NCBI GenBank assembly: GCA_002269645.1 | Contig: NIVC01003259.1 | Coordinates: 44,950-108,949, forward strand | Reading direction: 5' to 3' | Length of the DNA: 64,000 bases | Origin: Macrostomum lignano | Taxonomy: Eukaryota | In this document: in pieces, positions 8,501 to 28,434 of the stretch | Numbering within the stretch: the first letter of the stretch is position 1 | Layout of the letters: each line of letters opens with the position of its first letter | Program-made: the position numbers and the translations under genes | Notes under the pieces: model-generated | Told to the model about the DNA's origin: nothing | What the model saw: only the letters and a program-made list of their open reading frames with translations | The model's database searches: none

Positions 8501-9458
8501 TGAATCCCAAACATTGGTGGATCCTAAACATTGGTGGAACCCAAACATTACTGGATCCCAAACATTGGTGAATCCCAAACATTGGTGAATCTAAAAAATT
8601 GGTGAATCCCAAACATTGGTGGATCCCAAACATTGGTGAATCCCAAACAATGGTAAATCCAAAAAATTGGTGAATCCCAAACATTGGTGAATCTCAAAAA
8701 TTGGTGAATCCCAAACATTGGTGAATCCAAAAATTGGTGAATCCCAAACATTGGTGGATCTCAAACATTGGGGGATCCTAAACATTGGTGGATCATAAAC
8801 ATTGGTGGATCCCAAACGTTGGTGAATCCCAAACATTGGTGGATCCCAAACATTGGTGGATCCTAAACATTGGTGGATCCCAAACATTGGTGAATCCCAA
8901 ACATTGGTGGATCCTAAACATTGGTGGAACCCAAACATTGGTGGATCCCAAACATTGGTTAATTCCAAACATTGGTGCAACCCAAACATTGGTGAATCCC
9001 AAACATTGGTGAATCCCAAACATTGGTGAATCCCAAACATTGGTGAATCCAAAAAATTGGTGAATCCCAAACATTAGTGAATCCCAAACATTGGTGAATC
9101 CAAAAAATTGGTGAATCCCAAACATTGGTGGATCCCAAACATTGGTGGATCCTAAACATTGGTGGATCCCAAACATTGGTGAATCCCAAACATTGGTGGA
9201 TCCTAAACATTGGTGAATCCCAAACATTGGTGGATCCCAAACATTGGTTAATTCTAAACATTGGTGCAACCCAAACATTACTGGATCCCAAACATTGGTG
9301 AATCCCAAACATTGGTGAATCCAAAAAATTGGTGAATCCCAAACATTGGTGAAACCAAAACATTAGTAAAACCAAAACATTGGTGAATGCCAAACACTGG
9401 TTGATCCTAATTATTGGTCGATCATAAACATTGGTTTCCTCAACATTAGGTTATCAAA
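2550..9458. repeat. 17-bp satellite array (consensus ~CCAAACATTGGTG(A/G)ATC), ~400 units, with higher-order duplications
   Basis: Continuous tandem units. Identical translated ORFs recur at a 1885-bp offset (3728/5613, 4263/6148, 4780/6665). A landmark variant (aaacactggttgatcctaatta...tcataaacattgg) recurs near 4180, 6065, 7050, 7305, 7595 and 9390. Confidence 0.95.
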
Positions 9459-9658
9459 TGTAATATTTTATTCCTTGCCTTAGAGGCAGTCTGAACTGTT
9501 AGCAATCGTGACAAATAATTAGCTGAATCATCGTATTGATTTAATGTACGTTCGCTCTCTATGTACATCGCAGGCTTAACTTCAAATTGCATAAATAAAG
9601 CGATCACGTCTTCACGGGGCTTTCGTGTTTTTGGTGCTGCCAAATACCGCGTGTTACA
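9459..9658 (+). mobile_element. 5' LTR (200 bp) of a Gypsy/Ty3-type retrotransposon
   Basis: Begins TGTAA and ends TTACA, contains AATAAA (9594-9599), and is followed 2 nt later by a PBS and then gag. No second copy in the window. Confidence 0.8.
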
Positions 9659-9660
9659 AG

Positions 9661-9671
9661 TGGTAGCAGAG
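9661..9671 (+). promoter_or_regulatory. Primer-binding site complementary to the 3' end of initiator tRNA-Met
   Basis: TGGTAGCAGAG matches the reverse complement of the eukaryotic tRNA-iMet 3' end (TGGTAGCAGAGGATGG, recalled) over 11 nt. Confidence 0.8.
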
Positions 9672-9677
9672 CGTACT

Positions 9678-10469
9678 ATGGCAGAGGGCGGCAGTCACCG
9701 TGCGATTCCTAGGGCGTTCAGCTCAGGCAACTTTAAGGAGTGGCTCCAGCGGTTTGAGTTGTGCGCGGCAGCCAACAAGTGGGTAAATGACAAGCATGTG
9801 CACCTGCCAACGTTTTTGGATGGTGAGGCTCTGGCTGTTTTTCTTGAGCTCGACGAGAATAGCAAGAGCGACTACAGCAAAGTGACCAAAGCTCTGAGCC
9901 AGGCATTTCACCCGGACAGCCAGCAATTCTCAGCGCTGGATGCATTCGAGAGCCGGAAGCTGCTGCCGGGCGAATCTCCTCGGCTCTTTCTCTATCACCT
10001 GAAGCAGCTGCTAAAGGACGCGGGCATCAGCGAGGCAGGCGCAACGGCCACCATGCTGACTCACCAGTTCATCCGCGGACTGCCGGTGGACATCAGCAAG
10101 CAGATCAGAGCGGACGCGTCAGCCAAGACCGTGAGTGACGCTCTCGCACGGGCACAACTGCTACTGGAGCTGCCTTCTGCCACCACGGACGGATTCAAGC
10201 AGCCTCTTGCAGCGGCAGCCGGAGCTGCAGGCAGCGCGGAGACGGCAGAACTGAGGGCTGCGGTCAGCTCGCTGCAGGCGACGGTCCAAGACCTGGCGTC
10301 GAAGCTGGGCTCAGAGGTTTCGGACTCCTGCGCGATTCGCGGTGCGTGGAGACAGCGCGAGGTGACCTGCTGGAACTGCCACCGCCGCGGCCACATCGCC
10401 AGGAACTGTAATCAGCCGTCGGGAAACGGCACAGGCCGGGGCAGAGCCCGCACCCCTGGCCAGTTCTGA
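9678..10469 (+). CDS. gag: Retrotransposon Gag with CCHC zinc knuckle
   Basis: ATG just after the PBS. Gag-like 'FKEWLQRFELCAAANKW' and zinc knuckle 'CWNCHRRGHIARNC'. Confidence 0.9.
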   Translation: MAEGGSHRAIPRAFSSGNFKEWLQRFELCAAANKWVNDKHVHLPTFLDGEALAVFLELDENSKSDYSKVTKALSQAFHPDSQQFSALDAFESRKLLPGESPRLFLYHLKQLLKDAGISEAGATATMLTHQFIRGLPVDISKQIRADASAKTVSDALARAQLLLELPSATTDGFKQPLAAAAGAAGSAETAELRAAVSSLQATVQDLASKLGSEVSDSCAIRGAWRQREVTCWNCHRRGHIARNCNQPSGNGTGRGRARTPGQF

Positions 10470-10477
10470 GCGCGGGC
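10421..10477 (+). promoter_or_regulatory. -1 programmed ribosomal frameshift signal (G GGA AAC plus H-type pseudoknot)
   Basis: The slippery heptamer at 10421-10427 is in the gag frame, followed by a 6-nt spacer. Stem 1 is 10434-10441/10454-10461 (8 bp, one G-U). Stem 2 is 10446-10451/10472-10477. The -1 frame is open into pol. Confidence 0.85.
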
Positions 10478-11598
10478 CCCAGCGTGAGTGGGTTGTTCCT
10501 GGGCGCAGAGGGGAGCGGTGCAGCCAGCAGCAGCGCAGCGGCAGTCGTCATCAGGCCGAACTCGGCGACATCCAAGCTGCAGTGCAGGATCGGAGGCGCG
10601 GACGTCACGGCGCTTATCGACTCAGGCAGCCAGGTGTCAATCGTGGACAAGCGGGTCCTGCAGAGCATGCGGCCAGCTCAGCTGGAGAGCGTGCACCTGG
10701 AGCTGCGGGCAGTCAACCAGCAAGCGGTGCCGGTGCGGCAGGTGGCCAGCCTGGCAGTGTCGCTCGGCGGCATCGAGCGGCGGCACCCGTTTTACGTGTC
10801 TGAAGGTCTGGTTGCTGCCGTCATCATCGGGCTGGACTTCATCAAGGCCTGCAACATGTGCCTGGACTTCAGCGACAGTGCAGCAGAGACCCCATCAAAG
10901 GACTCTTGTGTGATCAACGGCGTGAGTCACCTCGATGCTGACAGTCAGCTCGAGGAAATTGAAGAGAAGCTGGTGCCGGATTTCACCAAGGAGGAGATCG
11001 ACCTGCCAGTCGCGGAGGACCCGGACATCCGAGCTTTGGTGCGCGAGTTCAGCGACATTTTCACCAGGCGGCCAGGGCTGACGGATCGACACGAGCACAG
11101 CATCCCGCTGACTGACGATGTTCCGGTGCGGATCCCGCCGAGGAAGCTGCCGGTGCACTGGGAGCCCGAGGTGAGGAAGCTGATTCAGGAGCTGCTGGAC
11201 AATGACGTCATCGAGGAGTCGGACAGCCCGTACGTGGCGACCCCAGTGTACGTGCGGAAGAAGAACGGTGACCTGCGGTTGACGATCGATTACCGCGAGC
11301 TGAACAAGAAGACGGTGCGGTCAGCGCAGGGGATTCCGCAGATGGACTTCGTCAAGGACAAGTTGGCTGGCAACGAGATTTTCTCGGTGATCGACCTGAA
11401 CGGCGGCTACTTCCAAATTCCGATGAAGCCGGAAGACAAGCAGAAGACGGCCTTCAGCCCAGGGCCCGGAATGCCGCTGTACCAGTTCAAGCGGATGCCG
11501 CAGGGCGTCTGTGGCGGCCCGAGCTCGTTCACCATCCTAATGAACCGCGTGTTCAAAGGCGCCGCGCAGACCTTCACCTACATGGACGACACGCTGTG
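10421..11598 (+). pseudogene. pol: Gypsy Pol (aspartic protease + N-terminal RT), truncated right after YMDD; RNase H, integrase and 3' LTR absent
   Basis: Protease motif 'ALIDSGSQVS'. RT motifs 'SPYVATPVYVRKKNGDLRLTIDYRELN', 'YQFKRMPQG' and 'TYMDD', then an abrupt switch to the CAG-rich array. Confidence 0.9.
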
Positions 11599-12680
11599 TC
11601 AGCGAGCGGCAGCAGCAGCAGCCTCCTAGCATCAGCGAGCAGCAGCAGCAGCCTCCAGGCATCGGCGAGCAGCAACAGCAGCCTCTTAGCATCAGCGAGC
11701 AGCAGCAGCAGCCTCCTAGCATCAGCGAGCAGCAGCAGCAGCCTCCAGGCATCGGCGAGCAGCAACAGCAGCCTCTTAGCATCAGCGAGCAGCAGCAGCA
11801 GCCTCTTAGCATCAGCGAGCAGCAACAGCAGCCTCTTAGCATCAGCGAGCAGCAACAGCAGCCTCTTAGCATCAGCGAGCAGCAGCAGCAGCCTCTTAGC
11901 ATCAGCGAGCAGCAGCAGCAGCCTCCAGGCATCGGCGAGCAGCAGCAGCAGCCTCCCAGCATCAGCAAGCAGCAACAGCAGCCTCTTAGCATCAGCGAGC
12001 AGCAGCAGCAGCCTCCAGGCATCGGCGAGCAGCCTCCTAGCATCAGCGAGCAGCAACAGCAGCCTCTTAGCATCAGCGAGCAGCAGCAGCAGCCTCCAGG
12101 CATCGGCGAGCAGCCTCCTAGCATCAGCGAGCAGCAGCAGCAGCCTCCAGGCATCGGCGAGCAGCCTCCTAGCATCAGCGAGCAGCAGCAGCAGCCTCCA
12201 GGCATCGGCGAGCAGCAACAGCAGCCTCCCAGCATCAGCAAGCAGCAACAGCAGCCTCTTAGCATCTGCGAGCAGCAGCAGCAGCCTCCAGGCATCGGCG
12301 AGCAGCTTTCAAGCATCAACAACATTGGTGAACAGATTGCTCAGCCAAACATTATTGAAGAACCGGCTGGATTGGATTCCCTGATGGAGGTATTGGGAGA
12401 CGGGGAATTTGAGGCTGCTAATAATGTCGTACCTGGATACCAACTGCAACTGGTGCTGCCACCAGTAATTGGAGCAGGATATATTATAAAAATTGAAAAT
12501 GACAGCATTATTTTTGTGTCTCGTTGAGCAAGCGAATTCTTGGTCACTTGGTCATTCTTGGCTATTGTGTATCTTAAAAATTCAATTTAACTTACATTTT
12601 TTACTTTAATTTGTACTTTAGCTTTTTTTATTTACAATAAGCCAAGAAGTGTTTTTTGTTTAAATCAATAGCGATTAGCA
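11599..12680 (+). repeat. Left inverted arm: 30/21-bp CAG-rich minisatellite plus ~370 bp unique sequence
   Basis: The reverse complement of 22629-23392, differing in array length and by a few SNPs. The inner boundary is ...gcgattagca in both copies. Confidence 0.95.
11601..12527 (+). pseudogene. 5'-truncated copy of a Gln/Pro-rich repeat ORF (EQQQQPPSIS)n with a unique C-terminus (…LDSLMEVLGDGEFEAANNVVPGYQLQLVLPPVIGAGYIIKIENDSIIFVSR*)
   Basis: Stop-free frame of 309 codons; all repeat units are multiples of 3. There is no start codon at its 5' end, so the ORF track does not show it. Confidence 0.5.
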
Positions 12681-13151
12681 AAGCTAGATAGAATATTTCG
12701 AGCATCATAGCTTTCAGTAGTATCAATCTACAATTAAATAAGCCAATCATGTAATTGTTGACTCAAATATGAATACAAGTTTTTGAAAATCTAGAACTGC
12801 CTCAAGCAGCACCGGTCGTAGCCCCAGTTTTCAACCTTTTTTTGCCTGCGGTAACTGGCAGGGGCTATGAAATTCATTTTGACAATCAAAAGTTTACCCT
12901 GATAGCATTGTAATTGTAAGTCTAAATACTTTGATGCAGAAAAATTGAAGTAAAAATATACTGCTAGCATTCGATTTTTTACTTCATTATGACTGGATAA
13001 GTTGGAATTTCGTTTCTATTTAATCAATTTCAATATTAGTTTTTCACTTAAATATAATAGTTTGAAAGTTTAATTTGTATCCATACTTTGTATTAGAGAT
13101 GTATTTGACCACTCAACTAATTGCAGCTAATGGAATCAAATAACAGGCAAA

Positions 13152-13470
13152 GTGGCAGAGCAGGACTCAAGCGAGTTTTCAGAGTCCGATTGTGACTGCT
13201 GGTCAGAATCAGAGAGAGAAGATAATTGGTCTGAATCAAGTTCCGGGGCAGACTACTCGGAGAGTGATTTCGATGGGCTCTCTGAAACCGACACCAACAA
13301 CACTAAGCAAGATTGTGCTAGTAGCGGTTCCAGTCTGATCGACACCGGCGGTGGTAGTGCAGGAAGCGACACCGGCGGCGGCAGTGCAGGAAGCGACACC
13401 GGCGGCGGCAGTGCAGGAAGGGAACTCAGCTTGATCGAAAACAACGGTGCCAGCAATATTCATCCTTATC
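13152..13470 (+). CDS. Acidic/Ser-rich ORF segment, candidate first exon of the PolB gene
   Basis: Ends at a GTGAGT donor (13471) whose phase matches the ttttcattttAG acceptor at 13653. The start codon is uncertain. Confidence 0.35.
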
Positions 13471-14815
13471 GTGAGTCAACAACATTTTTAATTTCAGCCT
13501 TAAGTTATTTAATTCCTGGGTGCATTCGAAGTTTTGTATTTAAAAATCGAGAAATTCGATTTAAGTGTGCTTATTGAGTCTAAATTTCATTACCATGGAA
13601 TACCATCCTTTGAGTAACAGAAAATAAGCAAAGCTGTTAATTTTTCATTTTAGACATTCAGCAAGTAGCAAGTGCGCACAACGAAACCCTGGTGGTGTAT
13701 CGAATTTCCGTGCCAAGCGATGCACCATGTGACCCATTTGAACTCGCCCGACGGAGCAGGGAAGCAATACAGCGAATTTTATTCGAGAAGATGGTGAATC
13801 CAAATCTTTTAGTTAGAGCGCAGCTAAAAATGAGCATCCGAATGAACAGAATCCAAGCTGGTGAAGTGGTGAACCAGGAAGAAAGATGGGTAAGCACTCG
13901 TTTGCAACCTGTCAATGACGCCGCTTGCTTTGATGATTGGTGGAAACAGCAGATTGATGGTTGCGAAGGCATCATTGAGAAGATGAACACAAATGGCAGT
14001 GGTTGGGTGATTGTGCGCGTCAACTGCATCGACTTGAACATTGCGGTTGGTCAAAGACTGCGCTTCTACTCTGGTCACGCAAGCAATTTTGAATTACCTC
14101 CTCTGCTGAAAGCAAAAAAAGCCGTCATCAATCCTCCTAGTACTGGCTCTGATTGTTTTTTGTATGCCTGCCTTGCAGTGCTGCATCACGGTGATGAGAA
14201 TTTGAGGAAAAACCCTCAAAGGCTTTCTACTTACAAGGACTGGTTGAACGATATCAATCTTTCAGGAATTTCCTTACCCGTTGGACTTAACCAGCTAAAT
14301 CGAATCGAATTACTGAACCCAAGGTTATGTTTTGTAGTTTTTTTCTTGGTCAAGCAGTAACGGTGTCAGTGTGCTGAGGCAGCCACGAGTTGAAGTCGCA
14401 TGCAGTCGCAAAGTAGTTCTTCTCCTACTATTGAACAAATCAGCTAACAAGGATGAAGAGGATAAACACTGGTGCGGAATTGCGAGCCTTGATAGGCTAC
14501 TAAACAGTAAAAGCGGTCTTTACCACAGAAAATGGTGTGAACGCTGCTTGAGCTCTTTCGTAACTGATCAGAAGCTAAGTGAGCACAGAGAGCAGTGCTA
14601 TCGCTTTAATGAGTTTGCTGTCAGGGAACGAGTTCCTACTGAGAAGCGCAGCGTGCTGTCTTTTCAAAACTACTTCAAAACTATTGAAGCACCGTTCGCT
14701 ATCTATGCTGATATTGAAGCATTTAATTCTCCGCTAGGCCCCCACACTCGAGAGGTCATGCATCAGAAGGTTAAGGAAATGGAGGTCAGCGACAATGAGC
14801 AAGTCTGCAGCACAC

Positions 14816-14817
<2 letters not shown>

Positions 14818-14898
<81 letters not shown>
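14818..14898. repeat. (AGC)27 microsatellite at the LINE 5' junction
   Basis: Pure trinucleotide run, in frame with polB (poly-Ser). Confidence 0.95.
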
Positions 14899-14901
<3 letters not shown>

Positions 14902-14904
14902 CAT

Positions 14905-17900
14905 ACCGCCAGTCAGCGCCCAAAGACCTGCCGGCGAAATCACCGAAAACAACCCACTGGAGCGCATCCCGACCACTAATCGCACTATTATCGGAGGCGA
15001 CTTCAACGCCCACGGCGCTTGGGATAACCACATGGAGGAGGACGAGCGAGGACAGCGCGTCGAGGAATGGGCAACCAGAAATGGGCTGGCTATCTGCAAC
15101 AGCAATGCTCATACCAGGACTAGCCCCGCCACCGGCAAACGGTCAACCCCGGACATTACCTGCGTTTCCGGCTCCTTGGCCGAAACGGTCACACGCAGCT
15201 GGAGGACTGGACCAGACTGCGGTAGCGATCACCTCCCGATCCTGTTCAACGCCGCGGCGCCCCGCCCTGCGCACAAACCAGGCCCCCCCCGCTGGAACTT
15301 TCGCAAAGCGAACTGGACAACCTACAAGTCGGAACTCCAGGCCAACCATTGCGCCCAACAGCCCAACCCTATTGGATCAGTGGCGAACGCCATGACCATT
15401 GACCAGGAAGCCGAAGCGCTCAGCAGCATGATCCTGAAGGCAGCACATAAGAGCATCCCGAGAGGCAGCACGGCGGGACGTCGGGCCCCATTCTGGTCCG
15501 AAGCCTGCTCAAATGCTTGCGCGGAAATCCAAGCTGCCCGGTCCCAAGCTGAGGAACTACAGACCCAAGAGGCCATTACAGCCTTCAACAGAGCCCGTCA
15601 CCAAGCCGCCAAGGTCATCAGGAAAGAGCGCCGCGATCACCTCGAACAACGCGCGGAAGCGCTCGATGCCAACTCTGACCTTTTTAAGCTGCTCAGATCT
15701 ATGCGCGGCGAAGCGCCCACGGGACGCGACCCTGCGGCAGTTAGCAGCCAGGCCTCCGGCAATCGCCCGGCGCGCACCTGCAACTCCGATAAAGAAAAGG
15801 CAAATCTCTTCTGCCAGCTTTATGCCGAGGTTAGCAGGGTTGAACGACGGGCGAGTGACGCAGCCATCCGCTACGAAGCCAACAGCGGCCTCCGGCAGTC
15901 CGAAGAGGAGGCCCAAGACCCGACCGCGGCCGACTTCACGCTGGGCGAACTCCGCACCGCGCTCCGTAAATTGAAGTCCGGTAAGGCGGCCGGCCCGGAT
16001 GGCGTCAGCAACGAAATGCTTAAGCACCTACCAGCGGAGATCGACGAACGCCTGCTGCACCTCATCAACCGCAGCTGGAAAGACGGCTCCACGCCGAACA
16101 GCTGGCGCCGAGCGTTCATCATCCCAGTGCCAAAAAAGGGGAAGGACCCAAAACTCCCGAGCAGCTATCGACCGGTCGCGCTTACGAGCTGCATCGCCAA
16201 GTGCGCCGAACGTATGGTGCTAGCCAGACTCAACTGGACGCTAAAAACCAAGAACCTCCTGACGCCCTGCCAGGCTGGCTTCCGCCGACACCGCGGCTGC
16301 GACGAGCAGATAGCCAGGATATGTCAGGATATTTTCGACGGCCTCGAATCGCAGCCTCCCATCCGCAGCATTCTTGCCCTGTTAGACTTCTGTCGCGCCT
16401 ACGACATGGTTTGGAGAGCAGCGCTTTATGCCAAGATGCTCCGCATGGGGATCAACCGCCGCATCATCAGATGGGTCCGCGGTTTCCTCTGCCAACGCAG
16501 GGCAGCGGTGAAGTGGAACGCTGCCACCAGCCGCGAGCGCTGCTTCAGGGAAGGACTGCCACAGGGCAGCGTCCTCGCACCTACGCTCTGGAACTGCTAC
16601 ATTAACGACCTACCGAAAGCCATCTCGCGGGCAGCCCCTCAATCAGCAGTCAGCCTTTACGCAGATGACTCGGCCATCCTCTGCTCAGCCACTACTCTTC
16701 AGCGCTGCGCAATCAATCTTCAACCGGCCCTTGACGCAGCCGCAGAATGGTGCCGCCGGTGGAAGGTCGAACTTAGCCCCAACAAGTGCTGTTTCACGAC
16801 CTTTTCGCTGGCACCCAACGAGACCAATGGGAAAGTTCGCCCGCACCTCAGCATCTGCGGCGAGCCTCTGCAGTTTGAGCTACACCCGACTTTCCTCGGC
16901 GTCAAACTTGATGGCCAGCTAACGTTCCAACACCATGCGGCGGATATCCGCCGCCGCATGGCAGTCCGCCGACGGCCCCTCGCCGCCCTGGCGACTCGTA
17001 GCGGCGGCGCCTCCTTCCACGTCCTCCGCACTGCCTACGTCGCCACCGTGCGTGCTATTGCCGACTACGCCTGCGGAATCTGGGGTGCCTTTGCGGCGCC
17101 GAGCAGCAGGCTTCTCATCGAACGGCAACAGTTTTGCTGCGCCAGGATCATCTCGGGGTGCATTAAGCCCACGAACGTCAGGGCGCTCCTCGCGGCCGTA
17201 GACCTGCCGCCCATCGGACACCTGATCCTGGAGAGAGCGGCGACCTTGCGGGAACGGGCTCTGAGGCTGCCCGGGGAGGTCCCGGTGCACCAGACTGCCG
17301 CTAGATCCTGCCCGCCCCGCCTGAAAACCCGTGCTCACGAGGCGTGGCTACGGGAGCAACACCCGGTGGATGACCGGGTCCTGCTGGAGAGCGACTACCG
17401 CAGGCCTTTCCGTGGTTGCTGGAGGCGCGCCGCACTGGAGCTCGGCATCAACGCCCTCGAGCCTGCGGGGAAGCGCGCCCCCTTCCCGATGCCCGAGCCG
17501 CCATGGCAGTCACCCAGCGAAGTCAGCTTCGACACCAGCCTGCAGGTCACCTGCGGCCGCAAAGTGCCGGACAGCATCAGACGGGAGAGAGCCATCAACG
17601 CCCTGGAATCCAGACCTCAACACGATATCGTCATCTGGACTGACGGCAGCGCAACGGATGGCTGCCGGGACGGCCGTGGCGCGGCCGTCCTGCACACCCT
17701 CCTGTGGGGCGAAGTTCACACGACAGCCGCTGGCTCCATCTGCAGCAGCACGACGGCGGAGCTAGCGGCTATAGCTCTAGGCATCCGCCGCTGCCTACAG
17801 CTTCAGAAACCACACGGGGGCAGCATCGACATTCTCACGGACAGCATGGCGGGCATCCTCACCCTGCAGCGCGGGCCAGCTGACCAACGCGAGCCCATGG

Positions 17901-18466
17901 GACAGCTGGTGTGGAGCCTGCTCAGTCAAGAAGCTCGCCCGGTCCGCTTTACCTGGGTGCCGGCCCTCGTCGGCGTCGATGGCAACGAAAGAGCCGACAA
18001 GGCGGCGAACCGGGCTTCGGACCTGACGCAGGACCAGCCCATCGCCTTCGAAGCCGCCAGGGCTGCCATCAAACGAGCCAGGCGACACCTCGATCTTAAA
18101 CTCTTGAATCGTAGCTCGCCCTGGAAGCGCTACGGCGGCCTGACTCGTGGCGAGACGGTGGCGGTTTGCCAATTGAGGGCCGGCTGCAGCACAGCCTGCG
18201 CGGCCACCCGCTACCGTATCGGCCTTACCGAGACTCCGCTCTGTCCGGACTGCGGAGACGAAGACACAGAAGAGCACCTCCTGCAGCAGTGTCCACGCGG
18301 AGACTCCGCCCGCCTTGCTCACCCTCTCGACCTCAACGACGCGGGCGGAATCTGCCGGTATCTGAGGATGATGGGGCGGCCTGCAGGTCGCCCTCCCCCC
18401 CAGCCGCCGGACAGCGGCGATGCGGGGGCTGCGTAGAAGAAGAAGAAGAAGAAGAAGAAGAAGAAG
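14905..18466 (+). mobile_element. 5'-truncated non-LTR retrotransposon (APE C-terminal part, RT, RNase H, CCHC; I/Ingi-like group) with (AAG)10 tail
   Basis: Open frame of ~1177 codons with 'GDFNAH', 'GSDHLPI', RT 'GLPQGSVLAP...YADD', RNase H 'WTDGS' and 'CPDC...HLLQQC'. The TAG stop runs directly into (AAG)n. TSD cagcagtcat at 14895-14904 and 18467-18476. Confidence 0.93.
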
Positions 18467-20123
18467 CAGCAGTCATGTACAAGCAAGACCAGATGAGGGC
18501 ATGGTAACTGGCAAAACCGTCTTTATTAGCGAGCATCTGCCTGCAGCGGGTGGATTTCTACTCGTTGCTCGTGAAGGCATGAAGGGACCACCACTCAAGG
18601 ATCAAGGTAAGGTGAAGTTGGTTTCCAGTTCGAATCCATTGGAGTGTATGGAAACGTTTCTTCATGAGCTGGAACGCGTAGCTCGAGAAGTCTATGAATG
18701 GAACAGAAGGCACAGCTACCAAACGGCTGAAGCAGACACTATTGCTAGTCATATCTTCAGTGAATCCTCCAACTGTCATTACTGTGATCGACAGTTTACT
18801 GACACTAATGACAAGCACTATGACCATGATCATCTGACTGGAAAATTCAAAGGCTCTGCATGTTCACGGTGTAACAAATTAGCGCAACTTCGCCGAAGAT
18901 TTCTGCCGATTTTCTTCCATAATCTCCGAAATTATGACATGCACCACCTGTTTTCAACAGCGTTAGGAAATATGAAAAACTGGAAGCTGAGTGTCATTCC
19001 TCAGACTTCTGAACGCTATATGTCTCTTCGAATAGATTTCCCAATCGCCGAAATCACTCTGCCGAAAGGCAAAAAGAAAACAATTTTCTTCACTCTGCAG
19101 TTCCTCGATTCATTCCAGTTTTTAAACGCGGGTCTAGACAAACTGATTCGCAACTTACCTCTCCAGGACAGAAAATTCACTCAGCAAATGAAAAGCTGCT
19201 TTCCAAAGTTAACTAATGAAACTTTGTCTATCAAGGGAGTCTTTCCCTATGATTTCGTCAAATCCCCCGCGAATTTGGCAGTGACCGAACTTCTGAGCAG
19301 AGAAGATTTTTTCAACTCTCTGACAAAGACAGCTTGCAGTGAGGAGAGCTATGGTCATGCGCGCAAAGCCTGGGAACAGATCGAAGCAAAAAATTTGCAC
19401 GACTACATGCTTGCCTACCTGCAGCTTGACATCCGTCAACTTGCCGATGTTTTTCAGAACTTTCGCCGTTTGAGTCTCCATGATGACGGTCTTGACCCAG
19501 CCCACTACTTTACTACACCAGGTCTATCATTTGATTCCGCGCTGAAATCCGCGCCAACACCGCTCCAGTTGCTCGACGATGCTGAGAAGTACAGACTCTT
19601 TGAGCTTGGCATTCGTGGAGGAATGACCTTCACGAACGTTCATCATGTTACTGCCGGACCAGTCACCAGTCACCAGTCGTCAGATGGTGCAGATTCATCA
19701 AGCGCAGCTTCTAATGCCGAGACAAATTCTTTGCTCCCCGTAGACATGAATAATCTCTACGGGCAAGCGCTGTCCGAAAAACTACCCGTCAGTGACTTTG
19801 AGTGGCTTAGTGAAGAAGAACTGTGTGAATGGACAGAAGAGAAGCTACTTAAATTGGATGACGATGGTCCAGTTGGCTACCTATTTGAGGTTGATTTGGA
19901 ATATCCAGATGTAATCCGCACGCAGACACAAGATTTGCCATTTGCCCCCGAGAAGGCCGCGCCTAAGCTCGAAGAGTTTCCGCCATTTATGAAACGTCTT
20001 TGGGGCGAATTGAACACTCGCAACGAGCCATACAAAGGCTGTGTGAAACTTTTACTCACATGTCATGACAAGGAATCCTACGTCGTACATTTCCGAATTT
20101 TGAAGTTCTACTTGCGTCACGGT

Positions 20124-20302
20124 CAGGGACTACTCAAACACCGGGACGGGAAACTAAGAATTTTTTACGAGGCTGGTCTTTTATCAGCAGTAGAAAATAA
20201 CCATAGACAACAAAGTAACACAGCATCTCTCTAATGAAAATAATTGCCAGCCAGCCTCGTAAAAAAATTTAGTTTCCCGTCCCGGTGTTTGAGTAGTCCC
20301 TG
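20124..20302. mobile_element. 179-bp MITE, hAT-like (TIR starts CAGGG, 8-bp TSD)
   Basis: ~53-bp near-perfect TIRs cagggactactcaaacaccgggacgggaaact... TSD gtcacggt at 20116-20123 and 20303-20310. Excision restores polB 'YLRHG|MRLKK'. Confidence 0.93.
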
Positions 20303-21657
20303 GTCACGGTATGCGACTAAAAAAGGTCCGAAGAGCTATTCGATTTTGTCAAGCTGCAATTTTCCAAGCCTACATTGACAGAAACAGCAAAAAGCGCTCA
20401 GCGGCTACAACGGAATTCGAAAAAGACTATTACAAACTGAAGAATAACTCCCTGTTCGGCAAAACGATGGAAAACGTACGGAAGAGGCTCAGTGTTCGAA
20501 TTTCTAACAATGAGGAGCAGTTCAAAATCTATTCATCGCGTCCGAATCTTAAGGACTTTACGATTGTGACTCAAGACTTTGTAGTTTTTCAATTTTTCAA
20601 GACTTCAGTCACTCTTGACCGCCCAATCTACGTTGGTCAATGTGTTTTAGATGACTCTAAGCTGGCGATGTACCGATTGTACTATGAAAAGCTGAAGCCA
20701 ACATTTGAGAATCCTGCTCTCCAACAAGGAGTTTCCCTATGCGGTGGGGACACCGATTCCTTCTTTCTGTGCTTTAAAAACATCGATGTTCAGAGTGCTG
20801 TTCTACCAGAACTCATTCGCCAGCGATTGCTAGATACCTCAAACTTCCCGGCCGACCATCAATTCCGATCCGATGATCTAAAAGCCAAGTTAGGCTGCAT
20901 AAAGGACGAATCTGCAGGCAATCCCCATCGTGAATGGATCCTTTTGAGACCAAAACTATACTCGATGAAGGCCGAGTCTGGAGGGAAGAAGGCAGCCAAA
21001 GGTGTTCAGAAGAGTGTGCTGCGGGCAGAAATCACACACGATGACTACATGCAGGCGTTTGCCAGTTTGAAGGAGCTTCGCGTCTTGACACGCAGAATCG
21101 CTAGCCGACGACACAGAGTAGTCACTTTAGAGCAACAGAAGCGTGCCCTGACTGTATGGGAGGACAAGCGTGCGTGGACTTCCCCAAACCAAAGTCTTCC
21201 GTATGGGCACTTTGCTCTAAGAGACCCCTGCCGCCACAGCTGCCGCCGTTACAATCGAGAAGCACCTCAACTAGCTGCTGATCAGGCACCCAAGCAAATG
21301 AGGATGCAATAACATACATTTGACTAGTGCGTACTTTTGAATTGAGCATTTGCTCAGCTTTGCATTTTGGCTTTTGGAACGCAATGTACATGTTGTCCGC
21401 ATAAATGCTATAGTACTTTTCTTTAACGTGCAATTGCTTTTTCAAAACTTGCTTAACTTTTATGAGTGTTAGCATTTTCATTTTCTTTCTTTTCCTATGT
21501 TATTTTAATATTAGTATCAATTTTCGCTGTGTTGCAGTTTGCTGACAATTTTTTAGCATCTTTTCTAACCAAAAAATAAAACTAGTAAACAAGGCATATT
21601 AAAGTTTTTTTTCTGCTAGTTCTTGTCGGAAGATTAAAGACGGATTATTATTGTGCT

Positions 21658-22242
21658 TTATTTTAGTTGCATAAGTGTGTTAACACAGCGAAACAGGGAA
21701 GAACGGTCGGATTTTAGCATACGCAGAGATTTCGCCCCACTTAGAATATAAGAAGCATTATGGAAAAGCAAGCATTTACAATACTTAAGTTGACAAACTA
21801 AAGCTGAAAATGTTTCTGGTTCATACTGGGCTTTGGGCAAAACTTTAACAAGTTCAGTAAGCGGTAGCGCATTTTGCAGCTTAAAACGTCCATGAGCAGT
21901 AATAGTTTTAATTGGAACACAAATTGTTTGATGAGGCAGCAGTTGATCCGGCACTCTCCGATGCAGCATAGCCACGAAGCGACGGGCAGCCCTTTTGGCG
22001 TCTGCGTGGGTCTTGGCGCCACAGATGCTCAGTTGCCCAGTAGGGTAGAGTAGCAGAGTCACTCTGGGACTCCGCATCCGCTTGATGAGCACCCGGGGCC
22101 AGACGGGCCGGTAGATCACATGAGCCATGCTGAGAGCCAGTTCCCATAGAGGCAGCTGGGCGCCCCTGCCACCATCCAGTCTCAGATCCACTCCGCCAAC
22201 CAGATTGGTCACTCTTAGGGCTGTAGCTGCAGGTGGACTCAT
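21658..22242 (-). CDS. Divergent intronless TATA-binding-protein-like protein
   Basis: Two TBP repeats: 'LRVTNLVGGVDL...YRPVWPRVLIKRMRSPRVTLLLYPTGQLSICGAK' and 'YEPETFSALV...LLFHNASYILSGAK'. Likely ATG at 22242 (ORF track start 22284 is GTG). Confidence 0.85.
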   Translation of the reverse strand: MSPPAATALRVTNLVGGVDLRLDGGRGAQLPLWELALSMAHVIYRPVWPRVLIKRMRSPRVTLLLYPTGQLSICGAKTHADAKRAARRFVAMLHRRVPDQLLPHQTICVPIKTITAHGRFKLQNALPLTELVKVLPKAQYEPETFSALVCQLKYCKCLLFHNASYILSGAKSLRMLKSDRSSLFRCVNTLMQLK

Positions 22243-22628
22243 TTCGATCCTTGACTTCTTCACCAAATCTTCTGCCAACTTCACTGCCCCTGTGCCACGG
22301 ACACTGCTCGCTTCTTAAGTTGATGCAGAACTTTGGCTTAAGCCAACTGTAGTGCAGCAACGAATTTCTCACTGCACAGCCAGTATCTGAATCTTCAATC
22401 GATGGTGCTCCCAAATCTTCTAGGTTATAAACCTGTCTACCAAGCAGCTCAGTCAGGAAAATAGACTTCCTTTCCCCATTTGTCCAGATCGGACCACTGG
22501 CAATCCCCAGAATGTCTTCCGCCAGTTCCATGTACGGACGGGTTCCATCGTTCCACTTAAACTGGTGCACACTCTTTGATAGCTGTCTGTAGCAAACTCG
22601 AATGTCAGGGGAGACCCTCTCCCATGGA
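21908..22628 (-). pseudogene. 5'-truncated Polinton-associated exonuclease-like (DEDD/RNase H-fold-like) ORF
   Basis: The frame reads PWERV...HQFKWNDGTRPY...TNGERKSIFL...YNLEDLGAP...CAVRN. This resembles a family I recall from Maverick-like elements (PW...HGL.W..G..PY...KG.EK...NLEDLGCP...CA..N). The N-terminus is cut by the right arm, and the 3' part overlaps the TBP-like ORF. Confidence 0.55.
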
Positions 22629-23392
22629 TGCTAATCGCTATTGATTTAAACAAAAAACACTTCTTGGCTTATTGTAAATAAAAAAAGCTAAAGTACAAAT
22701 TAAAGTAAAAAATGTAAGTTAAACTGAATTTTTAAGATACACAATAGCCAAGAATGACCAAGTGACCAAGAATTCGCTTGCTCAACGAGACACAAAAATA
22801 ATGCTGTCATTTTCAATTTTTACAATATATCCTGCTCCAATTACTGGTGGCAGCACCAGTTGCAGTTGGCATCGAGGTACGACATTATTAGCAGCCTCAA
22901 ATTCCCCGTCTCCCAATACCTCCATCAGGGAATCCAATCCAGCCGGTTCTTCAATAATGTTTGGCTGAGCAATCTGTTCACCAATGTTGTTGATGCTTGA
23001 AAGCTGCTCGCCGATGCCTGGAGGCTGCTGCTGCTGCTCGCTGATGCTAGGAGGCTGCTCGCCGATGCCTGGAGGCTGCTGTTGCTGCTCGCCGATGCCT
23101 GGAGGCTGCTGCTGCTGCTCGCTGATGCTAGGAGGCTGCTCGCCGATGCCTGGAGGCTGTTGCTGCTGCTCGCTGATGCTAAGAGGCTGCTCGCCGATGC
23201 CTGGAGGCTGCTGTTGCTGCTCGCCGATGCCTGGAGGCTGCTGCTGCTGCTCGCTGATGCTAGGAGGCTGCTCGCCGATGCCTGGAGGCTGCTGCTGCTG
23301 CTCGCTGATGCTAAGAGGCTGCTGTTGCTGCTCGCTGATGCTAGGAGGCTGCTCGCCGATGCCTGGAGGCTGCTGCTGCTGCCGCTCGCTGA
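22629..23392 (-). repeat. Right inverted arm (mirror of 11599-12680)
   Basis: Reverse-complement match including the rare gagcggcag unit that marks the start of the left arm. The array is shorter than on the left. Confidence 0.95.
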
Positions 23393-23480
23393 TGCTAAGA
23401 GGCTGCTCGCCGATGCATGGAGGCTGCTGCTGCTGTTGTTGTTGTTGTTGTTAGTTGGCCCAAACGCGCCCAGGATCCAT
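22782..23480 (-). pseudogene. Full-length copy of the Gln-rich ORF (MDPGRVWAN*QQQQ...FVSR) with a nonsense codon at position 10
   Basis: ATG at 23480 to TGA at 22782 is 233 codons in frame. The only stop is a TAA directly ahead of a CAA run, a plausible CAA>TAA change. Confidence 0.5.
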
Positions 23481-23715
23481 GCAGAACCTGGCCAGCGCGA
23501 CCAAACCATCAGGGTAATCGGACAAGTTCCGCCGTAGTCAAGCCGGTTATGCAATTGTCCGGGAATTGAGACAGATGAATCATGTTTTCAAATGAACGCA
23601 CACTGAGACGAACAAATATCGCGCTGTAGTGGAGATATTCCTTGCCTCCCTCAACCCTATTCATTTGCAAAATGAATAGCCACTGTTGGCTAGTCTATAT
23701 GATAATATGATAGAA

Positions 23716-23805
23716 GCACGGCTTGCGCGTGCAACAACGCCATAGACACTCGTGCGCTACGCTACGCTACGCAACGCTACGCGTTGTTGCACTTGCAAGC
23801 CGTGC
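23716..23805. other. 25-bp inverted repeat (23/25 Watson-Crick pairs) around a 40-nt loop containing (CTACG)n
   Basis: gcacggcttgcgcgtgcaacaacgc ... gcgttgttgcacttgcaagccgtgc. Confidence 0.85.
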
Positions 23806-24655
23806 ACTATCTTTCCATTGTTGCGGCGGAAGTGAGAATTCGGAAGACTGCAGTTATTTTTCACTTCATTTATATATATACAATTTGCGGAACACTGACC
23901 ACTGAATACAGTACCCTCAAATCCCCATTAAATGTACATCATTATTTGTTCCCCACCAACCCCAATCCAGTTCTTCCTCAAACCGACCAATCCTCTCCAA
24001 TCAGCATAAAATGTACATCATTATTTGTTCCCCACCAACCCCAATCCAGTTGTTCCTCAAACCGACCAATCGAACCCCCCTCCCTAATTTTCTTTCCAAG
24101 AACGGTGTACACAGCGCAGTTGTTGTGGTAGACTAGAAAAAGAATAATAATTACTCGTACACGCCGATATTATTCTGGCGCAATAACAAACTTTGTGCTT
24201 AGTAGACCCCAGACCTTTATCTAATAAAATTTCCCACAATATTTACTTTATATTCATTGGGCTTCGTTCTGTACCATAAACCGCCTATACAGTTGTAAAA
24301 CTGAGATCAACGGAAGAGCCTAGCAGTGAGAGCGTCGTGAGCCCCAACTAGCTTTTATGATCCGAACACTGTATCATCCAGCCCTTCCGATTTTCATACC
24401 TATATTTTTCCCTTTACACCGGCGGCAAGACTTGAACTAACCACAGCTCTGCCCAGCCCCTTATATCTCTCAGTGTACAATGGGGAGGGGGGGGACATAG
24501 GTGCGTAGGCCTGCGCCATTGCTTAACCAACCTCAGACCCATACAACGCCTAACCCCCTCCTCTCGGATTTCCCCCATCCCACTTTCAAACCCAATGCAA
24601 TAGGGCTCTATACTACCATGGCCCTCCTATCTCCGCAGTGCAAGTGCGGCAGAGT

Positions 24656-24926
24656 CTGGGTTTTTTGTGCGAATGGGTGCGAATAGCATCCTGGTCTTAA
24701 AAATCGCACCCTGAAATTTGACTCAGGGTGTGAAAAGCGCACCAGAATTTTTTGCAAGGATGTGATGCGGATTTAACAATTTAGTTTTATGGACGTCTTT
24801 AGTGTTATTAGTGTTAGACCAGTTTTTGTCTGCAGCAGTGCAGCGCATCCTGGTCTTGAAAATCGCACCCTGAAATCTAGCACAGGGTGCGAAATCGCAC
24901 CCAAGTTATGGACGAAAAAAACCCAG
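24656..24926. mobile_element. 271-bp MITE with 11-bp TIR and 8-bp TSD
   Basis: TIR ctgggtttttt / aaaaaacccag. TSD ggcagagt at 24648-24655 and 24927-24934. Internal direct repeat gcatcctggtctt(a/g)aaaatcgcaccctgaaa. Confidence 0.8.
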
Positions 24927-24954
24927 GGCAGAGTTGCATATGCGTTTCACCACT

Positions 24955-27697
24955 AGAGTTGAACAACTGTTTTAGAGCTCACCTCTCTGTCCCTGCACAG
25001 TGAAAGTGCGGCAGAGTTGAACAACTGTTTTAGAGCTCACCTCTCTGTCCCTGCACAGTGAAAGTGCGGCAGAGTTGAACAACTGTTTTTTAGAGCTCAC
25101 CTCTCTGTCCCTGCACATTAAAGTGCGGCAGAGTTGAACAACTGTTTTAGAGCTCACCTCTCTGTCCCTGCACAGTGAAAGTGCGGCAGAGTTGAACAAC
25201 TGTTTTAGAGCTCACCTCTCTGTCCCTGCACAGTGAAAATGCGGCAGAGTTGAACAACTGTTTTAGAGCTCACCTCTCTGTCCCTGCACAGTGAAAATGC
25301 GGCAGAGTTGAACAACTGTTTTAGAGCTCACCTCTCTGTCCCTGCACATTAAAGTGCGGCAGAGTTGAACAACTGTTTCAGAGCTTACCTCTCTGTCCCT
25401 GCACATTAAAGTGCGGCAGAGTTGAACAACTGTTTTAGAGCTCACCTCTCTGTCCCTGCACAGTGAAAGTGCGGCAGAGTTGAACAACTGTTTTAGAGCT
25501 CACCTCTCTGTCCCTGCACAGTGAAAGTGCGGCAGAGTTGAACAACTGTTTTAGAGCTCACCTCTCTGTCCCTGCACAGTGAAAGTGCGGCAGAGTTGAA
25601 CAACTGTTTTAGAGCTCACCTCTCTGTCCCTGCACATTAAATTGCGGCAGAGTTGAACAACTGTTTTAGAGCTCACCTCTCTGTCCCTGCACAGTGAAAG
25701 TGCGGCAGAGTTGAACAACTGTTTTAGAGCTCACCTCTCTGTCCCTGCACAGTGAAAGTGCGGCAGAGTTGAACAACTGTTTTAGAGCTCACCTCTCTGT
25801 CCCTGCACAGTGAAAGTGCGGCAGAGTTGAACAACTGTTTTTTAGAGCTCACCTCTCTGTCCCTGCACATTAAAGTGCGGCAGAGTTGAACAACTGTTTT
25901 AGAGCTCACCTCTCTGTCCCTGCACAGTGAAAGTGCGGCAGAGTTGAACAACTGTTTTAGAGCTCACCTCTCTGTCCCTGCACAGTGAAAATGCGGCAGA
26001 GTTGAACAACTGTTTTAGAGCTCACCTCTCTGTCCCTGCACAGTGAAAATGCGGCAGAGTTGAACAACTGTTTTAGAGCTCACCTCTCTGTCCCTGCACA
26101 TTAAAGTGCGGCAGAGTTGAACAACTGTTTTAGAGCTCACCTCTCTGTCCCTGCACATTAAAGTGCGGCAGAGTTGAACAACTGTTTTAGAGCTCACCTC
26201 TCTGTCCCTGCACATTAAAGTGCGGCAGAGTTGAACAACTGTTTTAGAGCTCACCTCTCTGTCCCTGCACAGTGAAAGTGCGGCAGAGTTGAACAACTGT
26301 TTCAGAGCTCACCTCTCTGTCCCTGCACAGTGAAAGTGCGGCAGAGTTGAACAACTGTTTTAGAGCTCACCTCTCTGTCCCTGCACATTAAAGTGCGGCA
26401 GAGTTGAACAACTGTTTCAGAGCTCACCTCTCTGTCCCTGCACAGTGAAAGTGCGGCAGAGTTGAACAACTGTTTTAGAGCTCACCTCTCTGTCCCTGCA
26501 CAGTGAAAATGCGGCAGAGTTGAATAACTGTTTCAGAGCTTACCTCTCTGTCCCTGCACAATAAAGTGCGGCAGAGTTGAACAACTGTTTTAGAGCTCAC
26601 CTCTCTGTCCCTGCACAGTGAAAATGCGGCAGAGTTGAACAACTGTTTTAGAGCTCACCTCTCTGTCCCTGCACAGTGAAAGTGCGGCAGAGTTGAACAA
26701 CTGTTTTAGAGCTCACCTCTCTGTCCCTGCACATTAAATTGCGGCAGAGTTGAACAACTGTTTTAGAGCTCACCTCTCTGTCCCTGCACAGTGAAAGTGC
26801 GGCAGAGTTGAACAACTGTTTTAGAGCTCACCTCTCTGTCCCTGCACAGTGAAAGTGCGGCAGAGTTGAACAACTGTTTTAGAGCTCACCTCTCTGTCCC
26901 TGCACAGTGAAAGTGCGGCAGAGTTGAACAACTGTTTTTTAGAGCTCACCTCTCTGTCCCTGCACATTAAAGTGCGGCAGAGTTGAACAACTGTTTTAGA
27001 GCTCACCTCTCTGTCCCTGCACAGTGAAAGTGCGGCAGAGTTGAACAACTGTTTTAGAGCTCACCTCTCTGTCCCTGCACAGTGAAAATGCGGCAGAGTT
27101 GAACAACTGTTTTAGAGCTCACCTCTCTGTCCCTGCACAGTGAAAATGCGGCAGAGTTGAACAACTGTTTTAGAGCTCACCTCTCTGTCCCTGCACATTA
27201 AAGTGCGGCAGAGTTGAACAACTGTTTTAGAGCTCACCTCTCTGTCCCTGCACATTAAAGTGCGGCAGAGTTGAACAACTGTTTTAGAGCTCACCTCTCT
27301 GTCCCTGCACATTAAAGTGCGGCAGAGTTGAACAACTGTTTTAGAGCTCACCTCTCTGTCCCTGCACAGTGAAAGTGCGGCAGAGTTGAACAACTGTTTC
27401 AGAGCTCACCTCTCTGTCCCTGCACAGTGAAAGTGCGGCAGAGTTGAACAACTGTTTTAGAGCTCACCTCTCTGTCCCTGCACATTAAAGTGCGGCAGAG
27501 TTGAACAACTGTTTCAGAGCTCACCTCTCTGTCCCTGCACAGTGAAAGTGCGGCAGAGTTGAACAACTGTTTTAGAGCTCACCTCTCTGTCCCTGCACAT
27601 TAAAGTGCGGCAGAGTTGAATAACTGTTTTAGAGCTCACCTCTCTGTCCCTGCACAGTGAAAGTGCGGCAGAGTTGAATAACTGTTTTAGAGCTCAC
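24955..27697. repeat. 58-bp tandem satellite, ~47 units
   Basis: Unit agagttgaacaactgttttagagctcacctctctgtccctgcacagtgaaagtgcggc. Variant patterns repeat at 752-bp and 1097-bp offsets. Confidence 0.95.
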
Positions 27698-27947
27698 CAA
27701 CCTCACCTCCATTTCAAAACCCCAACCTTTCCACTCAAGCCCCGCACCCGGTACAAAGTTTATTGCCCATTTATTAGAATCGCCAGAGCCAGACACTCAA
27801 GAAGACCAGAGCCTCTCTCTTATCTATTTCACTCCGCACTGACAAATAGTGCGGCAGAGTTGCATAGGCATGCTATAGGATAAACACAGTGGGGACGCCG
27901 AGGAGTTGCAATGGCCAGGCACAAATTGAGGTGGACGTTTCCACGCT

Positions 27948-28434
27948 ATGCCTACCTTGTTTTTAATTTGTTTACTCTGCTATTCCAAAACCTTCCGATT
28001 CTTTGCTTTGCTGCCTGCCTCCCCCAGTGCGGCAGAGTTGCATAAGCGTTTCACCACCCAGCCAATCACACCCACCCCACGCCCTTATTTCCATTGGCTA
28101 TCTCAGCTGGCTCTTTTACGCCCTCCTATCATTTTACATTACCGCCTATCTCCGCAGTGCAAGTGCGGCAGAGTTGCATAAACTCATACTACTTCCAAGG
28201 AACTACATCGCCATCACGGCACCCACATCCTACACCGACCCGCTATACTGGACTGACCACGTGATGAGCAGCCTGGATTGCACGACCAGGTGCAAAGCTG
28301 GTCAGTGCGAGGCTGTGCTGTTTGATAAGCGTCGACGCGCCTGCCACCCGTTGAGGTATCCACTGATACCTTATCCGGATCTGTACAACACGACCGGAGA
28401 GTTGTTCGAGTGTGAAGAAACAAACATACGATAA
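27948..28434 (+). CDS. Putative small secreted Cys-rich (PAN/apple-like) protein, split between two frames
   Basis: Hydrophobic N-terminus MPTLFLICLLCYS and Cys pattern 'DCTTRCKAGQCEAVLFD...C'. The two parts join in frame if one copy of a 20-bp direct repeat and the ~115 bp between the copies are removed. Confidence 0.4.

Follow-up and report, generated by a model that had tools for sequence, protein, structure and literature searches.

A lineage of Maverick/Polinton elements in the flatworm Macrostomum lignano carries its own gene for a TATA-binding protein (TBP), and we judge it probable that this protein acts as a private promoter factor, which would read a TAAGAA box ahead of the element's genes for integrase, packaging and, presumably, capsids and recruit the host's TFIIB and RNA polymerase II. 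The analysis started from a stretch of 64,000 nucleotides of contig NIVC01003259.1 (positions 44,950 to 108,949; hereafter the window), in which an intronless two-repeat TBP-fold open reading frame (ORF) had been predicted at 21658-22242, convergent with a polB gene. The 194-aa product of this ORF matches Pfam TBP at E 1e-19 in two stretches, in agreement with that prediction.

Results

The TBP gene is part of a Maverick/Polinton gene set

Searches of the genome gave 152 TBP matches, counting fragments, and 150 candidates were scored. Since host TBP and TRF2 are each present in triplicate in the assembly, match counts may exceed the numbers of loci. Among the 108 listed matches of at least 159 aa, at least 96 have the C-terminus of polB within 15 kb, and in at least 95 of these polB is on the strand opposite to TBP. 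The multi-copy linkage of TBP to polB that the original prediction proposed is therefore present, and in whole copies it takes in the integrase, the protease and a probable P-loop ATPase. Whole copies begin with a left-end ORF and polB, followed in reverse orientation by PC4, integrase, presumed minor capsid, a small ORF, presumed major capsid, protease, ATPase, PZ, EXO and TBP. The integrase of copy C84 matches rve at 2.7e-16 and has a chromodomain, and integrase is also found in the sister copies C96 and C986. The adenovirus-like protease of a whole copy matches Peptidase_C5 at 22 bits (cut-off 21.3), and PF03175 is matched in copy C100 at 1.8e-12. The ATPase ORF has a conserved Walker A motif with sub-threshold P-loop matches and no Pox_A32 match; from its size, its position and this motif we presume it to be of the A32 type. 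Two conserved ORFs of 427 and 269 aa stand at the place expected for capsids. They gave no match in Pfam, PHROG or PDB and no profile match to the double-jelly-roll (DJR) protein of another family, and a single-sequence model of a presumed capsid reached a predicted local distance difference test (pLDDT) score of 31.

Six copies were examined for their ends. They are 15.9-17.2 kb long and bounded by inverted repeats of 160-706 bp, all beginning AGTAGT; four have an exact 6-bp target duplication, one an exact duplication with an extra ACT at one end, and one a duplication with 5/6 positions identical. The definition of Mavericks/Polintons in the available text of a preprint (13-25 kb; inverted repeats of 100-1500 bp; target duplication of 5-8 bp; bioRxiv 10.1101/2023.08.22.554363) fits these whole copies, and the accessible parts of two further sources served for comparison (PMC8502044, PMC11161782). 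By polB, integrase, protease, inverted repeats, length and target duplication, the TBP lineage is Maverick/Polinton. It shares with these elements (adintoviruses) its size, a pPolB with an HNH insert, an integrase of the rve type, an adenovirus-like protease, inverted repeats at the termini, the 6-bp duplication and a presumed P-loop ATPase, whereas it differs from them in its TBP, its PC4 protein, two classes of promoter, and capsids too divergent for a library match.

A second family, B, was represented by 27 matches (at least 140 aa, at least 83%), and its TBP is 33-39% identical to that of the first family, A. Its TBP gene still lies behind EXO, with PC4 beyond. Some family-B copies (L111-L114; C254, C1157) are without capsid or protease matches; what they retain is polB, the integrase in part, ATPase, EXO, TBP, PC4 and terminal repeats of 1 kb. 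The PC4-domain protein occurs in both TBP-bearing families (L050:8158-8922(-), L054:295-933(-)) and might serve either as a co-activator of transcription or, in replication, as a protein that binds single-stranded DNA. A third element, C2285, encodes a very divergent TBP-like ORF (L116:6243-6857(+); E 1.8e-4 among 2,109 frames); it also has an ATPase and capsid-like pieces, and we presume its start to resemble a dUTPase.

Among the subfamilies of family A, the virion half and the first ~60% of TBP are 90-100% identical, the remainder of TBP is 39-78% identical, and the polB half is at most 70% identical. Comparison of the window TBP with L040, L044, L065 and L067, and of L032 with L040, L044, L062 and L068, places the breaks of these module swaps within TBP near the lobe boundary.

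The element TBP keeps the second-lobe Phe and Glu pairs and has a changed DNA face

A structure model built solely from 17 element-type sequences had a pLDDT of 89.9 and the form of a two-lobed saddle. In Foldseek it reached template modelling (TM) scores of 0.76-0.83 to solved TBPs, and all 44 listed PDB matches at E<=0.001 were TBP chains or fusions. The protein is a bare core of 187-199 aa without an N-terminal tail. At the four Phe positions of TBP the original prediction had read W/Y/F/F; alignment to host TBP instead gives P/Y/F/F (P in 16/17 proteins; Y, F and F each in 17/17). The first Phe aligns to P49, with W48 one residue earlier, and archaeal alignments give the same register; W48 could take the intercalating role only through a local shift. 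We also considered a "swapped proline", in which a first-lobe Pro would mirror that of the second lobe, and dropped the idea: the Pro occupies a Phe position. Of the two base-reading Asn residues, N13 is retained and the second is Thr in 17/17, in line with the predicted loss of the second-repeat Asn. The Pro after the third Phe is replaced by Ser or Asn. In the available text of one study this Pro goes with a preferred T in the first position of the box (PMC12529657); its replacement would fit a box with a free first position.

Twelve residues are identical in all 17 proteins: N13, R50, Y66, P67, K112, T113, E141, P142, E143, F145, F160 and H161. The changes of the DNA face, with R50, Y66, P67, K112, T113 and H161 invariant, are fixed and are not decay; the first lobe and centre are rewired, with the second-lobe Phe and Glu pairs kept. 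TFIIB contacts TBP through two second-lobe glutamates, which have diverged in viral TBPs according to the part of the literature available to us (PMC7221094). In the element proteins these glutamates, E141 and E143 (mapped to YEPE by alignment to host TBP), are invariant in 17/17, and no match to TFIIB was found on the elements. The basic patch of the first lobe is partly retained in family A and acidic in family B. Relative to its sister copies, the window TBP has two private changes, W34 and P110.

The gene is under purifying selection and forms its own clade

The ratio of nonsynonymous to synonymous substitution rates (dN/dS) was estimated among eight subfamily copies, whose pairs are not independent. 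For the N-terminal half of TBP it was 0.09-0.44 in 28/28 pairs, and for the C-terminal half 0.08-0.31 in the 21 measurable of 28 pairs, the others being saturated. The element TBP is thus a stable gene under purifying selection (dN/dS 0.08-0.44 overall).

In a tree of 159 rows, from which 3/143 database rows had been removed for short alignments, the 17 element-type proteins form one clade with a Shimodaira-Hasegawa-like approximate likelihood ratio (SH-aLRT) support of 98, and in a 40-row subset the support was 100/99. Both the long-branch clade and the selection had been anticipated, and together with the linkage they support the predicted polinton-like lineage with a private TBP. A close grouping with a host TRF paralogue had been named among the possible refutations; the approximately unbiased (AU) test rejected a grouping with host TBP (p 0.0025), but it did not reject a grouping with host TRF2 (p 0.12). 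Identity is 26% to host TBP and 24% to host TRF2. The cores of host TBP (L051:3713-4369(-)) and TRF2 (L052:3845-5035(-)) are each a single intronless open frame, so that the intronless state of the element gene says nothing about its origin.

The best 40-row tree places the element clade beside short TBPs of 170-200 aa (support 83/86), which come from unannotated contigs of up to 26 kb. Like the element TBPs, a wide set of tail-less TBPs of 165-200 aa on unannotated contigs lacks two residues of the second lobe (P0050, P0052, P0058, P0068, P0070, P0073-P0075, P0088, P0097, P0172-P0189), and such tail-less short TBPs may be cargo of other Mavericks. Relatives of the element type are present in other sequence sets (P0003-P0005, P0010, P0011, P0159-P0168). 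Scans of viral contigs gave no element-type TBP or capsid, their single locus (L110) being on a giant-virus contig. A metagenome scan gave 33 loci with Maverick markers in 0/33, of which the 17 inspected were archaeal, eukaryotic or giant-virus-like TBPs, and a protein atlas gave generic TBP clusters only.

A TAAGAA box precedes genes of the virion and integration module

In copy C84, TAAGAA occurs within 150 nt upstream of 7/10 mapped starts, at distances of 39 (integrase), 44 (minor capsid), 56 (ATPase), 56 (EXO), 72 (TBP), 102 (major capsid) and 147 nt (small ORF), and it is absent before PC4, protease and PZ. Among hexamers it ranks first in C84 and joint first in C878; in each case 5/1,000 shuffles reached its count for any hexamer. 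Seven of the nine module-strand boxes of C84 fall in the upstream windows, which make up 15% of the span, as against one on the other strand. Over the copies scored, the module-strand boxes within such windows (12-15% of the span) numbered 7/9, 7/10, 6/12, 7/8 and 3/6. In family A the box is at least 39 nt from well-mapped starts, and values of 10 nt stem from an alternative upstream ATG. Codon use bears a trace of the box, since Leu-Arg pairs are coded TTA-AGA in 4/21 cases, against about 0.4 expected, and all four stand among the final 14 codons ahead of a downstream gene. TAAG alone is neither depleted nor strand-biased. Read by eye, canonical TATA-like boxes stand before PC4 (6/6 printed) and the left-end ORF (3/3). 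Two Maverick families with Pfam DJR matches and no TBP match have the TAAGAA box before 0/8 and 1/6 genes, and their genes show AAAATG starts. Contigs from runs presumed to be RNA cover TBP, the module genes and terminal non-coding parts, and carry no weight either way.

In alpha-type Mavericks with PLA2 and DJR matches (L118, L119, L124, L126, L127), most genes start AAAATG after an AT-rich run, unlike those of the TBP-bearing families.

The window copy is a rearranged derivative

The features of the window copy are collected in Table 1. Its polB, predicted at about 1,300 codons, is recovered in four pieces (13641-14360, 14338-14800, 18467-20132 and 20303-21312) that sum to ~1,278 codons, matches DNA_pol_B_2 and Endonuclease_7, and is convergent with the TBP gene. 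The 3.6-kb non-LTR (long terminal repeat) retrotransposon within it is missing at the same polB site in C96, C986 and C1547 and is not part of the Maverick; its insertion point is a CAG microsatellite within polB, and it ends in an AAG run. The inverted ends of the MITE-like (miniature inverted-repeat transposable element) insertion measure ~50 bp, and a related piece occurs in L037.

Table 1. Features of the element copy and its flank in the window (positions are those of the window)
Feature	Position	Strand	Remarks
TBP-like gene	21658-22242	-	194 aa, open frame; Pfam TBP, model, Foldseek, alignments
TAAGAA box, candidate promoter	22312-22317	-	context ACTTAAGAAG; 75 nt ahead of the TBP start codon
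EXO gene remnant, 5'-truncated	22243-22628	-	conserved gene
polB, N-terminal pieces	13641-14800	+	frame break near 14338-14360
CAG run and inserted non-LTR retrotransposon, inside polB	14801-18466	+	endonuclease, reverse transcriptase (RT), RNase H (Pfam); AAG tail
polB, middle piece	18467-20132	+	Endonuclease VII (HNH-type) insert; exonuclease and polymerase motifs; PF02945 7e-8, PF03175 2.6e-9
MITE-like insertion, 170 bp, inside polB	20133-20302		inverted ends
polB, C-terminal piece	20303-21312	+	KNNSLFGKT and DTDS motifs
Inner remainder of the element's left end	11600-12680	+	3' part of repeat-rich left-end ORF, plus spacer
AT-rich spacer and short acidic ORF (13131-13577), 5' of polB	12681-13640	+	conserved in sister copies
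Inverted copy of the element's left end	22629-28193	-	stands in place of the virion/integrase half
Element terminus AGTAGTATGAG	28171-28193	-	sole terminus within the window
Ty3/gypsy gag-protease-RT fragment, flanking, outside the element	9540-11598	+	Pfam; RT cut internally

The long inverted arms noted in the original prediction exist (12250-12680 against 22629-23059, 99% identity, plus a CAG-rich array). We rejected them as terminal repeats, since the segment from 22629 is an inverted copy of the left end and the real terminus ends at 28193; the outer left end of the element is missing in the window. The junction at 22628/22629 occurs twice in the genome, in the window and in contig C1547, whose flanks match those of the window, which makes it the same locus. 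C1547 differs in its nested insertions and keeps more of the left end, and the Ty3/gypsy fragment also adjoins this second copy. With an inverted left end, a shared junction and a single locus, a broken polB, and neither integrase nor virion module, the window copy is one rearranged, decayed, non-autonomous derivative that kept TBP and its box.

An exonuclease-like ORF had also been predicted beside TBP. The window EXO lost its 5' end at the inverted-copy junction and begins at about residue 50 of 156, and EXO has no Pfam, PHROG or PDB match. The sole hint of a nuclease is a DxE/DxQ-like motif in whole copies, which reads DFEG in family B and DFQG in A; the class considered was that of the DEDD exonucleases, with three acidic motifs and an RNase H-like fold. 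The EXO frame continues over TBP codons 1-112 down to 21908. Dual coding was considered and rejected: dN/dS in the EXO frame exceeded 1 in 26/27 measurable pairs, and the overlapping tail is therefore without selection.

Two repeats accompany the locus. A 58-bp array (24955-27698) belongs to the element's end and is far longer in the window than in C96, and a 17-bp satellite of about 405 copies occupies 2553-9435.

Discussion

Proposed mechanism and its alternatives

The original prediction had the private TBP redirecting transcription initiation to element promoters, an idea that gains support from the matching TAAGAA box. In the scheme that we favour, host TBP would transcribe the terminal genes (left-end ORF and PC4) from canonical TATA boxes. 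The element TBP would then bind the G-containing TAAGAA box, recruit host TFIIB and RNA polymerase II, and activate the genes of the virion and integration module. In family A the TBP gene too has the box in front of it, and the protein would act back on its own expression as well. Several observations weigh against this. The enrichment of the box is weaker in C529 (50/1,000 shuffles) and C114 (68/1,000), TAAGAA does not rank first in family B (3/7 genes), the TBP gene of family B is without the box in 2/3 copies, and no family-A copy with mapped starts has it before protease or PZ. The box control consists of two lineages, and the first pass with hidden Markov models overlooked the divergent TBP of C2285. 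Both capsid genes are presumed, from size and position. With Pro and Tyr at two Phe sites and one Asn lost, stable bending of DNA by the protein is not assured. The box is nearly the same in both families, yet their TBPs are only ~35% identical and their first lobes differ. Finally, TAAG is the core of the baculovirus late promoter. These last two points would suit a different reader of the box, either host TBP or TFIID, or the RNA polymerase of some helper virus whose late promoters are of the baculovirus kind, the element TBP having some other task. Most instances of the box contain (A/T)TAAG, as the baculovirus late motif does, and some, such as TATAAGAA before EXO, are near a usable TATA box. 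We nevertheless give this explanation little credence, since the box is missing in the two TBP-less families of the same genome, its distance of 39 nt or more from well-mapped family-A starts fits a -30 element, and TAAG as such shows neither depletion nor strand bias.

Alternatively, the protein might be a decoy that keeps the TFIIB stirrup, binds DNA poorly and titrates host TFIIB or related factors, or it might bind element DNA for replication or packaging; sequestration of TFIIB/TFIIA was the second function put forward in the original prediction, and it may still apply. The invariant Glu pair beside two altered Phe and one altered Asn would agree with this, as would the state of the first-lobe basic patch in the two families and the retention of TBP in capsid-less derivatives (the window copy; C254, C1157). 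Such retention can be passive, however, and the altered residues of the DNA face do not vary among three sub-lineages; a decoy also leaves the box, and its co-occurrence with TBP, unexplained, and we regard this reading as unlikely. Very improbable, and largely refuted where a passenger is meant, is a captured host TBP or TRF2 copy in drift: intronless host cores and the survival of the TRF2 grouping in the AU test speak for it, while the rejected TBP grouping, best trees that set the clade apart from both host proteins, the low identity to either, dN/dS well under 1 and a gene position conserved in two families speak against it. Mis-assembly of the window, which the original prediction had named as a possible refutation, was not borne out. 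The region is rich in repeats and its left end does differ between the two contigs that hold the locus, but C1547 has the same junction and flanks with different nested insertions, and the linkage of polB and TBP recurs in at least 96 places, so that we consider an artefact scarcely credible. The preferred reading remains that of a promoter factor for the TAAGAA box.

Comparison with known systems

By the Phe and Asn tests, applied to the aligned proteins, the element TBP is not a canonical TBP. It shares with cellular TBP and TRF2 (PF00352) the two-lobed saddle, the first Asn, the second-lobe Phe pair and the YEPE stirrup, but differs in having Pro for the first Phe, Tyr for the second, Thr for the second Asn and Ser or Asn for the Pro after the third Phe, no N-terminal tail, and 26% identity.

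[quoted passage not shown] In both systems a TBP fold encoded by the virus or element has a DNA face of greater polarity and is paired with a TATA-like box of non-standard sequence, which stands ahead of structural genes (presumed ones in the Maverick). As described in the accessible text, KSHV ORF24 keeps the four Phe, lacks the TFIIB glutamates, and has an extra Pol II-binding domain and five viral partners, whereas the Maverick TBP is a bare core with the glutamates kept and with no such partner among the ORFs scanned. By analogy, the Maverick TBP likely works like the herpesvirus late TBP system without being a member of it. In the TBP-like proteins of nucleocytoplasmic large DNA viruses (NCLDV), the TFIIB-contact positions have diverged, and many of these viruses encode their own TFIIB, according to the part of the source at hand (PMC7221094). 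These proteins share the viral TBP fold and match the element model less well (BFVD, TM up to 0.75) than cellular TBPs do (0.76-0.83).

The original prediction treated TBP as not known among Polinton cargo, which needs softening. In print, the label TBP appears among the abbreviations in the legend of Fig. 5 of Starrett et al. 2021, in a section on non-animal datasets, for a TBP-like gene of a PolB element of middle size that may be related to the flatworm element. In the available text of that paper there is no TBP analysis, flatworm or promoter, and one supplement gave no match. "TBP" had 0 occurrences in two pPolB papers searched for it. In searches of the openly readable literature we found no analysis of a Maverick TBP or its box; an annotation of one could stand in papers behind subscription, in Repbase, or in figures and preprint supplements.

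Implications

Little is known of when and how Mavericks/Polintons activate their particle genes, and animal copies may still behave as viruses. An element TBP with a matching box reduces the problem to one small protein and one short motif, in one laboratory animal with routine knock-down and start-site mapping. More tentatively, and with somewhat less than even confidence, we suggest that animal Mavericks of a broad lineage use a single protein for a minimal early/late cascade: a bare TBP core with a rewired DNA face, which would read a private G-containing box and work through host TFIIB, in contrast to the TBPs of herpesviruses and of giant viruses alike. The short TBPs of 5-26 kb contigs would belong to the same radiation, and in swaps at the lobe boundary the half that reads the box would stay with the genes that bear it. 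If the proposed role is true, the "late TBP" strategy of herpesviruses would have arisen independently in a much smaller genome, and the element protein would be a natural TBP of altered specificity that still works through host TFIIB.

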